Below, piece by piece: positions 43,401 through 58,157 of a stretch of DNA of 64,000 nt. Under the pieces are notes generated by a model that worked only from the letters and a program-made list of their open reading frames with translations, did no database searches and was not told the origin of the DNA. Origin of the DNA: Eledone cirrhosa (Eukaryota); assembly GCA_964016885.1 (NCBI GenBank), contig OZ024744.1, forward strand, positions 89,094,001 to 89,158,000. Reading direction: 5' to 3'. Numbering within the stretch: the first letter of the stretch is position 1; every line of letters begins with the position of its first letter. The position numbers and the translations under genes are program-made.

Positions 43401-45384
43401 TGACTTTAGCCGATGCATAATAGAGATGATTTAAAGCAGTAATGTTTCGTTTGTTTGTGATGATAATGTTTTTGAGAATTATGTTAGTCTTGTGTATTAT
43501 CTTTTGGTTCTGTTTGGAGTTCTGGATCTTAGGGAGGGTGTCTCGTTGCCCCATGTCAGATTCTTTCATTTTCATCCATTCGATCATAATTTCATCCTTC
43601 AAGTTGGCAAGTTCATTCTCATTCATTTCTTTATCATTTACGATCTCATTATTTTCATTTGGAGTTTCATCCTGAGCATGCACTCCCTCCACTTTTTCGA
43701 TCCTTTCTTTAATTTGTTCTGTTGCCAGTGATTCCGCCCCAACCCTGGGATTCGAAGTGTTACAGTTTACTTCGTTTTCACTGAGACATGTTTCATTTTC
43801 CCTTCGCTGACTTTGTGCTAATAGCTTGATCTGATCAATTTCTATATCAGTTAGTAACTTTTTTCTTACAATATTTCTTCATATATTGGCTAGTTTGTTA
43901 CTGTCAATATAGCCTCTCTTTTCGGGATGTTTCTTTTTCCAGTTGATATATGTCTGTTCTGTATTCGATGTATTTGATGGGTAGTACATGGCAGTGTAGA
44001 AAGCCTCAAGGACTTCTTTATTATCTTCCCTTGACCATTTTTCTCTCTTTTTCTTTGGATTTCTTGGTGGTGAGCATGGAGGGCCAACAGTAGGAGTATT
44101 CCGGTTATGGGAGGTCTCCAGCTCCGAAGTGATGGGAAGGTTTGAACCATTAGCTGATTTTTCGACCCCAGTCTGGTTCCTCTCTGAGGGACGCGGCCCT
44201 TTTTTACCCGGGTGACGGCCGATCCGGTATGAGATTTTATCATTAGACATTTACTTTATTTTGTCGCGTTTTATCCTTATCCGCCAAGGGGTAATCATTT
44301 CGTGTTACCACTTCTAGAACGAGTGTCAACCAAGACTAGAGGGGTCGTTCTCCCCTAGAGACACGGCTATTCCCCGCCGGCCGCCATCCCGGTATTTCTT
44401 GGTCACGGGGTTTTCTTTTTGTTGTTTTTTTTTAAGTTGTTATTATCATGACTGGTTCCTTAATGTGAGCATTGCGTGGCTTAAGAATGAAATTATTAAT
44501 AATTGTCTCCATTCCAGGCACAAGGCCAGCAATCACCCAGTGCATTACAATAATATAATATACTTTTTGCTGTAGTTGCCTGTTATTGTTGTTGGCTATG
44601 TCGGTGGTGGTGCCGGGGCTTTTTATATTGTTGGTGAGGAAGGGGTGAGCCAGCAGTCCCATAGTTGTTGATGTTGACGTTTGGCCGGTGGCCAGGTCAC
44701 TAAGTCAATCTATTTATATCTTTTGCTAGCCTCTCCCTTGTCTAGTGATACCGCCACCTTCCCCTTTCTCTCTCAAGTTAACAGGGGAATAGTGGTGGTA
44801 GCAATGAAAGAGTGGTGGCGGCGGCGATGGGATAGTGGTAGCAATGATGGATGGGGTGGTGGCGTTGTGGTTACTGGGTTTTGTGATATGTAGTATCTAT
44901 GAGTTTGTGTTCGTATGTTTAATATATATTGTGTTGACATATTCCCGTAAAATTGGAATTAAACATTTTGTTAAAATTTGAGACAATAATAATAGTAATT
45001 ATTATTATGATGCTGGGATTGATGGTGGTGGTGGTGAAATTGCCGTTATCTGGCTGTTATATGTAGTGTGATGGGATAGGTGGTGTATCAAGTTTCTGGT
45101 GTTGGTGAAATTGCTGTTATTTGGCTGTTCTATATAGTGTAGACAGAGGGTGTTTTCTTCCATTTATAACCATTTTCTTTTTTTGAATACAAAATATATA
45201 ATACAAAATTGAATATTTGAGTGATATAACAATATAATGTGGATCCGAAATTTTATGGGACTTCATTCGGTGGTTTATGCAACATTTGTACTAAGAATTG
45301 TTATTCCACAATTGATTTAAATATGTTAAAAATCAAAAACTTACGGGAGCGATTTTATGACCTTCTACCACCTCGTGCGTCTCG
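40466..45384 (-). mobile_element. R4/Dong family B, full-length copy 1 with about 1.1-kb upstream leader
   Basis: ATG 44250 to stop 40611; the leader is shared with copy 2 up to ACGCACG.GGTGGTAGAAGG; (TAA)n at both ends. Confidence 0.93.
40611..44250 (-). pseudogene. Family B single ORF (about 1215 aa: Myb-like, RT, CCHC, RLE), disrupted
   Basis: Premature TGA at 43879-43881 (CGA in copy 2), about 10-nt deletion near 41342, YMDE instead of YMDD. Confidence 0.9.
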
Positions 45385-45439
45385 TTATTATTATTATTCT
45401 TATTATTATTCTTATTATTATTATATTATTATTATTATT

Positions 45440-48400
45440 ACAGCTGCATTTATCTTGCTTTATGTTCATACGAGTTATCACCAAGTCACAACCAGTGACC
45501 TCAAGAGACAACAAGGTCCGCCATGTTCAAGAAAGAACATACATACTCACACATGCATCTTTAGTGTTTAGACTTGTGATGTACTTATATTGACAGAATT
45601 TTCCTTAGTATATGGGCAGTTCCCATTAGTACTATCTTTTGTATTTCTCCTATATGCGGGTTTTCTGGGATTTGCGATAAGTAATCATTAGACCCCTTAG
45701 GTATCATTCCCAGAGAGCCTACAACCACTGGTATTGTTTTAGTTCTCAATTTCCACATTTTTCAAATTTCTATCTCCAGGTCCTTATACTCGCTCAATTT
45801 TTCAAATGTTTTTATAGATACATTCTTGTCTATTGGAACGGACATATCAATTAGCAAGGATACCCTCTTTTTAAAGTCCTTCAATATTATATCAGGTCTA
45901 TTTGCATCTATTTGTCGGTCTGTTTGGATGCTAAAGTTCCACAAGATGGAGATGTGATCTTTTTCAAGTATGGGAGGTGGCTGATGCTCCCACCAATTCT
46001 TTTGATGGGGCAGGTCAAAATGCTTACACATTATCCAATGTATGTATTGTGCAGCTCTGTCATGCCTGTTTAGGTATTCGGTTGGAGCTATAGGACTGCA
46101 CATTGAAATTATATGGTCAATGGTCTCTGGTTGTTTTTTACATACACGGCATAATGGGCTGCATCCATTTTTTATTATGTTGGCTTGGTAATTTTTTGTT
46201 GGCAGACACTGATCTTGTGCTGATATAATCAGTCCTTCAGTCTCCAATTTCAGTCCAGAGGATGCCAACCACTGATGTGTTAAAGTTTTGTCAACATCAG
46301 GATTGTTAGCTCGTTCTGGGTATTTTCCATACAGAGGCTTTTCTTGCCATTTCTTAGCCAGTTACTTTTACCTGCTTTGCTTTTTCTGTGTTTTCCATTT
46401 CAACAGTAAATGGGACTTCTGAAATGTGTAGTCAATTACTGTATCTTTGTGCATCTTTTGTAATGGAGTATGATCTTTTGATGCTTTCGTGTTTCAAAAC
46501 GAGTTTGATCATCCAATCATGTGATTCCCTGAGATATGTAGATAATCCAATCGTTGCAGTTTTCAACGCAATGTCTAACTGGATTGACCCACGTCCTCCT
46601 TCTTTGCTAGGGAGATATATTCTATCTGTACCTGCCTTAGGGTGATGCATTCTGTGCATGGTTAAGAATTTTCGAATTTTTGTATCGAGCCTACGGATCT
46701 CTGTGCTTGACCAGTTGATGACATTGTAACTGTAGGTTACTACTGGCATGGCAAGCGTGTTTATAGCATCGATCCTATTCCTTGCATTCAATTCCGTTCT
46801 TAAGATTGCTCTTACTCTGCGGTAACATTCCTTCCTTATCCTTTCCCTCATTGTCGAGTGCTTGATTCCGTCTCCTTCACAAACACCTAGATATTTGTAA
46901 GTTTCCTCTTGATCAAGTTCTCTTATCACATTCCCTCGACCAAGATTAATGTCTGAACTTTTCAGCAGCTTTCCTCTGGTGAACGTTGCTTTGGCGCATT
47001 TATCTAGTCCAAACTCCATTTTAATGTCATCACTGAACTGCTCCACAGTGGATAATAGCCCTTGCAATTGTTCATCATTTTTTGCAAATAGTTTCAGGTC
47101 ATCCATGTAGAACAAGTGATTAATGGTTTTGTCATAGACTCTATATCCATGTTTTGTTTCATTGAGCATTTTACTTAATGGTATAAGTGCGATGCAGAAT
47201 AAAAGCGGTGATAAAGAGTCACCCTGAAAAATTCCACAATTAATATTAACTTCTCCAGCTTCCAGTGATTTTTTTCACTATTCAGAAGGAGTGTCGTTTT
47301 CCATGTCTTAATACTGAATGACAAAAACCTCCTGACAACAGGGGATATTTTGAAAATCTCTAAACATTTTTCAATCCAACTGTGTGGCAAACTATCGAAT
47401 GCTTTTTTATAATCTATCCAAGCAATCGATAGATTTTTGTGTCTATTATGACAATCTTCCAGTATCATTTTGTTAACCAAAAGCTGATCCTTGCAGCCAT
47501 ATGAGCCTCGTTTACACCCTTTCTGCTCAATGGGAAATAGGTCATTTGTTATCAGGTGGTCATATGTATACTCAGTTAGGACTGATGTTAAAATTTTATA
47601 CATTTTGGTCAAGCAAGCTATCGGTCTGTAATTTTTGGGATTGTTTGTCTCATTATTCTTCGGAAGCAGGAATGTAATGCCCTTAACTAGCCATGATGGT
47701 ATCTTTTCTGGCTCCTTAACTATTTCATTGTAAAGTTGGGCTAAAAGCTCATGAGACTCTGTGAAGGCATTTATCCAAAAATTTTGTATTTTGTCTTTTT
47801 CTGGGGATTTCCATTTGCTGGTTTTTCTTAGAGCCAAACGCAACTGTTCAACTGTTATATTTTCCCATATTTGTTCCTCAAGGTGAGCTGTATCTTTTAT
47901 TTGTCTGTCTATCCATGGGGCATGTATATTATGAACTTTTTCTTCGGCCCAGATCTTTTCCCAGAATTCTTGCACTTCCTCCTTGGGTGGTATTGATTTA
48001 GCAGTTATTGTTGACTTACCAATTTTTCTGTAGAAGTTTCTTTGGTTGGTTTTGAACATATTATTGTCCTTATAGAATCTAGATCGTTTTTTAAAGCGCC
48101 TTATACGAGCAGTTTTGGCCGACACTTTTTGCTTGATTGTTTCTATCAGCATGTCTATGTCACATGTTGATCTTATACTGTACTTTTTTTTCAATTTTCT
48201 AAGTTTAGTTTGTTTAACATGTTCACCTACTTTATAGTTTTTAAAAATGTCTATGTCACATCGGAGAAGGTTTATTTGGCGATTGATGTTCTCTTGCCAA
48301 GTAGATTTCTTGTGGGAATTCCTTTGTTTTTTCATCTTCACTCCACATAAGTGAGTGGTGACTTTAGCCGATGCATAATAGAGATGATTTAAATCAGTAA

Positions 48401-57475: not shown

Positions 57476-58120
57476 CCGTATTACTGTAGTGATGGTGCTG
57501 TAGCGGTGGCAGCAGCAGTGGAGGAGTCAGGGGGTGGTGGCGGCGGTGATGGGATAGTGGTGGTAATGATGGCCGTAGTGAGCGGTGGCGGTGAAGGTGA
57601 AAATGCTGTTGTGTTTAGTGTACACAGATGATGGGGTGGGTGGTGTATCTAGTTTCTGGTGTTGGTGAGTTTCGCTGTCCTATATAGTGTAGCCAGAGGA
57701 GAGGAGGGGGGGTTCTTCTTCTTCCATTTATAGTCATTTTATTTATTTTTTTTTTTTTGGATATACAGTGTACAATACAAAGTTGAATATTTGAATATTT
57801 GAGCCGTATTACTGTAGTGATGGTGCTGTAGCGGTGGCAGCAGCAGTGAAGGAGTCAAGGGGTGGTGGCGGCGGTGATGGGATAGTGGTGGTAATGATGG
57901 CCGTAGTGAGCGGTGGCGGTGAAGGTGAAAATGCTGTTGTGTTTAGTGTACACAGATGATGGGGTGGGCGGTGTATCTAGTTTCTGGTGTTGGTGAGTTT
58001 AGCTGTCCTATATAGTGTAGCCAGAGGAGAGGAGGGGGGGGGTTCTTCTTCTTCCATTTATAGCCATTTTTTTTTGGATATACAGTGTACAATACAAAGT
58101 TGAATATTTGAATATTTGAG
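57476..58120 (-). promoter_or_regulatory. Tandemly duplicated 328-bp upstream module with TATAAA (57727-57732, 58057-58062)
   Basis: Direct repeat 57476-57803 / 57804-58120; homologous to family B leaders; promoter role is inference. Confidence 0.45.
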
Positions 58121-58157
58121 CCTTATAACAATATATTTTATTATATATTATAAAATA

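Follow-up and report, generated by a model that had tools for sequence, protein, structure and literature searches.

Transcription of long interspersed nuclear elements (LINEs) that use a restriction-like endonuclease (RLE) is poorly known outside rRNA genes, and the silkworm element Dong, where this was tested, relies on a ribozyme. Upstream promoter systems exist in other LINEs, namely, the monomers of the mouse L1 A and F families and HeT-A. Here we describe two minus-strand LINE families, A and B, that lie in an array within a 64,000-nucleotide (nt) stretch of the Eledone cirrhosa genome (assembly GCA_964016885.1, contig OZ024744.1, positions 89,094,001 to 89,158,000), referred to below as the window and used for coordinates throughout, and we compare their copies within this 3.0-Gb genome. 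An original prediction made from this DNA had proposed that the two families share a TATA-bearing promoter module situated upstream of them.

Several described systems can be set beside these families. Dong of Bombyx mori is released by a hepatitis delta virus (HDV)-like self-cleaving ribozyme at its 5' end (PMC3774820). The elements analyzed here share with it a single open reading frame (ORF) with reverse transcriptase (RT), CCHC knuckle, and RLE motifs, as well as insertion into TAA repeats (PMC3774820), but they differ in that no HDV-like ribozyme was found and in having a 5' untranslated region (UTR) of 1.1 to 1.5 kb, a Tx1-like 5' unit, and a used splice donor. In mouse, coactive L1 families exchange 5' UTRs, with template switching as one proposed route (PMC3600994). 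Families A and B likewise pass 5' ends between families active together; however, the mouse exchange involves close L1 relatives, whereas A and B are only about 45% identical as proteins, and their 5' unit was probably first donated by a member of a different clade, one with an apurinic/apyrimidinic endonuclease (APE) rather than an RLE. Human L1 gives rise to SpIREs, rare spliced and reinserted copies without the 5' UTR intron, and the conservation of its splice donor stems from overlap with a promoter element (PMC5860796). Rare copies without a 5' UTR intron and a conserved donor are also seen here, but SpIREs are known from L1, while these copies belong to an RLE element and occupy 4 loci in a family, B, that numbers about 1,300 copies. 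In Octopus vulgaris, Dong-R4 and L1-Tx1 elements are annotated as recently active, and the word promoter is absent from the available portion of that article (PMC13282606). A literature search, with subscription papers, Repbase reports, and supplements largely outside its scope, found no report of cross-clade promoter capture by R4/Dong families or of 5' exchange between them.

Families A and B have the same 5' end

Between 38.8 and 58.2 kb, the window holds head-to-tail minus-strand LINE copies (B1, B2, A, and 3' fragments) with (TAA)n tracts between them. Each family has a single RT ORF in which RVT_1 was found and Exo_endo_phos, the APE endonuclease domain, gave no match, with frames that are broken in the window copies. 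The translations of both carry CxxC..HxxxxC and RPD..D..EK, which we take to be, respectively, the motifs of a C-terminal CCHC knuckle and of a restriction-like endonuclease. The A protein also gives a weak match to residues 996 to 1068 of the R2 protein 9nl2 (E, 0.008), and (TAA)n is the insertion target of both A and B in the window tracts and in the sampled genomic copies. Families A and B are thus probably R4/Dong-type elements, with the Dong label resting on layout and target; the homologues of B, at 38 to 66% identity, are almost all unnamed. Counted through motifs next to the ORF starts, there are 1,824 copies of A and 1,334 of B. As had been proposed, the two families are divergent, with proteins that are 32 to 62% identical over nine tblastx blocks (about 45%) and ORFs that cannot be aligned as DNA, the best match being only 53 nt long.

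The homology ahead of the two ORFs is real, with scores of 133 to 159 compared to 26 ± 3 (maximum, 37) for 100 shuffles, but its proposed location upstream of the elements is not: the shared module is the elements' own 5' end in both families. Counted from its fixed terminus, GGGAAGAAGACGCAC, this shared unit is about 370 nt long in A and B. The span first claimed for it needs correction. What window A has in common with B1 is limited to 45025-45237 plus a small block around 44810-44845, the middle part being found only in older A subfamilies, and the unit reaches about 145 nt further, to the element 5' terminus (45238-45385). The terminal ~145 nt are absent from window A because it is a 5'-truncated copy, and they are carried by full-length A copies at about 84% identity to B. 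The A-rich tract before the proximal UTR is present in both families, as originally described.

We found 2,145 exact genomic matches to a two-block module pattern, and the first 30 of these loci (27 elements) all run into an A or B ORF. A near-terminus motif has 1,710 matches; among the first 30, an A or B element follows in 29, the lone exception being one solo truncated piece (L116), and a TAA tract within ~150 nt precedes 27 of the same 30. When copies were instead anchored at the ORF (the first 30 of A and the first 30 of B), 32 of the 60 extend to the common terminus, with one terminus call judged from the overlapping locus L086, and 28 are truncated inside the UTR; an alternative full 5' UTR was found in none of these 60 copies.

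Several terminus junctions, including those of L118, L108, and L110, show short repeats of the first bases interleaved with TAA, a pattern that fits repeated re-priming at the RNA 5' end. The proximal UTR of B (window 44260-44415) folds as a long stem, in which GACCAAGA and TCTTGGTT pair around inner hairpins, and this fold is kept in old copies. This folded part, which by eye does not fit the HDV order, may be the original 5' end of the family.

The 5' unit has been exchanged repeatedly between A and B

Across 374 A-B pairs, module identity ranges from 77 to 98%, with a median of 86%. A tree built from 39 modules requires four changes of the ORF label, and a single change was seen in 0 of 200 bootstrap trees. 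A second tree of 31 rows, to which three old A units were added and from which 12 near-identical young A rows were left out, has five label changes, of which strong branches make three unavoidable, and it rejects the grouping of all B units to the exclusion of A (p-AU, 3.65e-40). The midpoint root, on which the order of the swaps hinges, falls beside the old A units and gives the succession old A, then B, then A, then B (L065 and L119) within young A. In middle-aged A copies a B-type unit is stacked before the remainder of the old A unit, and in L290 a 5' piece of B is joined straight to a complete 5' end of A, a junction showing that 5'-end stacks do form. Exchange of a 5' cassette between the families, as originally suggested, is therefore supported by the interleaving in the module trees and by module identity in elements whose ORFs are unalignable, and we conclude that the unit was exchanged repeatedly between A and B, in at least three swaps.

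Genomic 5' ends and spliced copies fit an RNA start at the terminus

All four sense-strand TATAAA words reported for the window are present at their stated positions (45163-45168, 50146-50151, 57727-57732, and 58057-58062). A TATA-driven upstream promoter is nevertheless not supported, since the word lies 220 nt downstream of the copied 5' end, inside the element (in B2, from 50371 to 50151), and 5' junctions past it do not exceed background. Counts restricted to the forward strand, so that no locus enters twice, give 750 junctions between a TAA tract and the terminus. The 31 nt before CTACACTATATAG contain 11 forward-strand TAA junctions (20 loci on both strands) and the next window behind TATAAA contains 11 (control, 4), the two windows together spanning TATA+25 to +35 in both families; by our own estimate, random truncation is expected to give ~40 per 31-nt window on both strands, before pattern losses. 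As an indirect proxy for RNA starts, genomic junctions thus show no excess of 5' ends 25 to 35 nt past TATAAA, and 1 of 60 sampled copies (L147) begins at TATA+28. The word also occurs in 45% of shuffles of the module's AT-rich stretch, and the three oldest A copies, whose ORFs are 84 to 91% identical to that of window A, have an older form of the unit with no TATAAA at that place. The TATA-like word is likely incidental. A word resembling a downstream promoter element lies near +28 and is shifted by 1 to 2 nt between subfamilies.

The motif GTAAGT, a splice donor at about +41, is conserved in 35 of 39 copies. We looked for intron loss where the exon-end motif lacks a GT after it, taking the first 100 of 207 such matches, and then with a genome-wide pattern. 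Four loci (L290 to L293) skip from the exon end to the ATG region, and the genome-wide pattern returned the same four and no others. These are all B copies with a normal terminus, they represent three events (L290 and L291 being one duplicated event), and all four break exactly at CCC/GTAAGT, though the pattern permitted 14 more bases. In L292 and L293, which belong to different B subfamilies, there is an exact GT-AG loss, with the sequence resuming at AG/AAAATGG. Intron loss that is exact at the donor means that the RNA had its start upstream of +41 and was processed by the spliceosome, and this in turn points to RNA polymerase II (Pol II), so that the proposed Pol II transcript gains support from the spliced copies. 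Genomic 5' ends and spliced copies together fit an RNA that starts at the element's first base. In the proximal UTR of A, a T-rich tract ending in TACAG (57031-57110, minus strand) resembles an acceptor; no splice junction at this TACAG site was found among the 100 of 207 matches listed.

The 5' unit resembles the 5' ends of L1/Tx1-type LINEs

Among 97 distinct upstream flanks, 18 open with the 5' end of another element that faces away, head to head. Over their full length, these neighbors prove to be LINEs of 6 kb with two ORFs that encode APE endonuclease and RT. They are flanked by (ATT)n, which is the same microsatellite as (TAA)n on the opposite strand. Their ORF2 has APE endonuclease, RT, and a zinc domain, and in ORF1 a CCHC was read by eye, with no Pfam match; from target specificity and layout we take them to be Tx1 elements. 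They have several 5' UTR types, most of which carry a GCTCYYGTAAG-like motif at +25 to +45 and end ~200 to 230 nt in, at an A-run plus ATGG, and the same layout is found in the Dong unit. The first ~230 nt of the Dong unit align in register with these UTRs, with TATAAA just behind their ORF1 start codon, and Dong AAAATGGYTATAAA is aligned with the ORF1 start AAACATGGCTACAAA of one Tx1-type family.

A profile of 13 Tx1-type UTRs gave in-register matches to 40 of the 42 Dong 5' ends examined; 32 of these scored 8.6 to 11.2 bits, compared to 5.1 for the best of 500 shuffles, and in the window the four module copies are among its five best matches. The reverse profile, built from the Dong unit and run over 186 kb, matched Tx1-type UTRs in register at up to 19.9 bits; without the motif, five Tx1-type UTRs still scored 9 to 15 bits, with controls at most 3.2. 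In a fresh 190 kb, the only non-Dong matches above 10 bits were three Tx1-type 5' UTRs. This likeness of the Dong 5' unit to L1/Tx1-type 5' UTRs is new here and suggests that the unit likely came from an L1/Tx1-type element; we infer the direction from Tx1 to Dong because the ATG opens a real ORF only in the Tx1-type element.

Among the Tx1-type loci (L211 to L224 and L255 to L269), several distinct types of 5' UTR and ORF1 are combined with ORF2s whose identity between types reaches 95 to 99%, which indicates that Tx1-type LINEs swap front ends too.

The 328-bp tandem duplication in A belongs to one young clade

Window A contains the duplication first described for it, with a 328-bp offset and 93.5% identity (57476-57812 versus 57804-58129), but this is no trait of family A as a whole: 30 unbiased A copies comprise 5 with two units, 18 with one, and 7, which are truncated, with none. 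On the A ORF tree, the 328-bp form is a single young clade (4 copies; support, 98/93), and L143 has a longer duplication of separate origin. The duplicated unit omits the first ~165 nt, where both the terminus and the conserved splice-donor motif lie, and in full-length copies a single terminus is retained at the front. Thus, the analogy with mouse L1 monomers is weak. Young A copies resemble the mouse L1 A/F and HeT-A systems in having a tandem 5' piece but differ in that the A repeat leaves out terminus and donor, arose late, and produces no second 5'-end peak.

Features of the window

The elements of the main array are listed in Table 1.

Table 1. Elements, 5' signals, and target tracts of the main array
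Feature	Coordinates	Strand	Remarks
Family B copy 1 (B1), full length	40467-45385	-	Single RT-RLE ORF from 44250 to ~40611, with stops and frameshifts
B1 5' terminus and short first exon, ending ...ATCGCTCCC	45345-45385	-	
B1 intron-like stretch GTAAGT...AG, 168 nt	45177-45344	-	
B1 ATG (45173-45171) at the position of a Tx1-type ORF1 start, then TATAAA (45168-45163)	45163-45173	-	
B1 post-ATG block common to A and B (CTACACTATATAG...CACCAACACCAGAAAC)	45025-45170	-	
B1 low-complexity middle part	44738-45024	-	In older A subfamilies up to ...TATCACTAGACAA; mostly gone from the window's young A
B1 B-specific UTR: SINE (short interspersed nuclear element) relic (~44450-44559), A-rich tract, folded proximal part	44251-44737	-	
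Family B copy 2 (B2), full length	45441-50371	-	Terminus GGG at 50371; ORF start 49207
B2 signals	Donor 50326, acceptor 50160, ATG 50156, TATAAA 50151-50146	-	
Family A copy, without first ~150 nt of shared 5' unit	53439-58134	-	ORF start 56906, frameshifted
A tandem duplication, 328 bp: units 57804-58134 and 57476-57803, ATGGCTATAAA in each	57476-58134	-	No terminus or donor in either
A-specific UTR: A-rich tract and proximal part	56907-57475	-	
(TAA)n target tract between B2 and B1	45385-45440	.	
Further (TAA)n tracts	38846-38886, 40436-40466, 50435-50507, 50563-50587, 51088-51126, 53398-53438, 58134-58242		
L1/Tx1-type 3' end, in the tract that also holds B1 and tail to tail with it	40383-40435	+	Matches L221 and L223 3' ends

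A second TAA array (window 20500-26570, plus strand) holds 5'-truncated B and A copies in the orientation opposite to that of the main array. Elsewhere, L004 to L007 (G000:C28:114443501-114458802) are four tandem B copies with a 4,955-bp period and identical scores, which either were amplified in tandem recently or result from the assembly. Where the B 5' UTR has its SINE relic (window 44450-44559), older copies (L158, L175, and L300) have longer or complete SINEs; the SINEs of the window presumably resemble octopus SINEs. Plus-strand fragments at window 58490-59044 and 61060-62248, which we take to resemble the GIY-YIG end of Penelope-like elements, gave no Pfam match. The window also contains palindromes at 30121-30478 (358 bp, ~90%, resembling a miniature inverted-repeat transposable element) and 19510-19733 (microsatellite based), a 30-bp tandem repeat in 28 copies (33783-34608), and a 1.8-kb CTG/CTA-based minisatellite with several frames open (35034-36841).

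Discussion

We consider the best reading of these data, at a probability of roughly two in three, to be that the shared unit is a captured, putative internal Pol II promoter of the L1/Tx1 type that has been shuttled between two RLE families. The 5' unit is likely to be an on-board promoter. Slightly better than even, in our judgment, are the odds for the fuller account, in which an RLE element replaced ribozyme release with a captured Tx1-type promoter, first exon, and intron, and two diverged RLE families then traded the promoter back and forth. A Dong ancestor would have gained its 5' unit from the 5' UTR and ORF1 start of a Tx1-type element, through template jumping by the Dong reverse transcriptase or through insertion into an AAT/AAC-rich ORF1 start and subsequent transcription from the Tx1 promoter. 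Such a capture would free the element from read-through and from the need for a 5' ribozyme, the way of silkworm Dong. Template jumps or recombination would have moved the unit from A to B, from B to A, and from A to B again, because A and B insert side by side in the same TAA tracts. The TATAAA word would be a by-product of codons 2 to 4 of a dead ORF1 start, and the 328-bp repeat would be a recent internal duplication.

Several observations weigh against this reading. No close Tx1 donor was found in the ~375 kb examined, and none of the 97 flanks showed a Dong copy lying within a Tx1 ORF1 and oriented as it is. The Tx1 scores are modest, the sequence is AT rich, and part of the Tx1 loci were chosen via the shared motif. 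Gapped identity between the Dong unit and Tx1 UTRs is ~65 to 75%, compared to 65% for shuffles, with the separation lying in alignment score and not in identity. A profile of the part after the ATG, run against all sampled ORF1s, reached 4.9 bits at best, with no detectable homology, and the dead-ORF1 reading is therefore one of position; BLAST of the same part gave SINE matches in the top 12 rows. One of the three intron-loss events, that of L290/L291, is exact at the donor but resumes 5 nt earlier and not at the usual AG. The absence of an HDV-like ribozyme at the 5' end, by Rfam and by a descriptor, includes a descriptor search made without a positive control.

The most serious competing explanation, though a doubtful one, is that the 5' unit was exchanged but is no promoter, and that the elements are copied by read-through transcription, with the fixed 5' end made by an undetected ribozyme or a nuclease cut, as in silkworm Dong. 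B. mori Dong does self-cleave at its 5' end (PMC3774820), tandem arrangement of copies is frequent here, and the splice donor would be usable in any Pol II read-through RNA. However, Rfam ribozyme matches numbered 0 in the window and were only at chance level, at a loose threshold, in L066 and L067, an HDV-like descriptor, the one without a control, fitted none of 8 copies (strict) or 3 copies (relaxed), and the folds of the first 128 nt are weak and disagree among three copies. In addition, the same layout opens Tx1-type elements, a clade that we take to have internal promoters, as described for human L1 (PMC5860796). Unlikely too, and ranking next, is a version in which the internal promoter and the A-B exchange are real and the Tx1 likeness arose not by capture but because AT-rich DNA converged on a motif for splice donation or factor binding. 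The low scores, the missing close donor, and the lack of post-ATG homology would all suit convergence, but in-register matches survive removal of the motif and include a second block (ATAATAT...GGCTCAAATATT...AAAAATGG), UTR length is equal up to an ATG that is useless in Dong, and Tx1 UTRs that were not selected were matched as well.

The cassette originally predicted, with a TATA box, a start 25 to 35 nt downstream, and a position upstream kept by monomer duplication as in mouse L1, seems very improbable, even though TATAAA is found in all four window copies, many young A copies have two to three units, and L147 begins where such a start would fall. Junctions behind TATAAA are no more frequent than random truncation would give and are few next to those at the terminus; B, with its single unit, still keeps the 220 nt upstream of the word; the oldest A copies lack it; and the spliced copies show that the RNA began upstream of it. 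We regard as next to impossible the remaining proposal, that the module is a multicopy host locus or an independent repeat used as a source site. The solo truncated piece L116 speaks for it, but the idea fails because unbiased module matches, all of one sample of 30 and all but one of the other, continue into A or B ORFs, in the latter sample mostly behind a TAA tract.

The swapping of 5' UTRs is hereby extended from close L1 relatives to families at ~45% protein identity, and the candidate promoter is narrowed to a defined, putative 230-nt piece. If the captured-promoter reading is true, thousands of young copies would each be equipped with a Pol II promoter taken from another clade. This could account for the expansion of these elements, and more than 1,500 units of promoter plus splice donor would be scattered through the genome. 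Shared target arrays would then be a marketplace for promoters across LINE clades.

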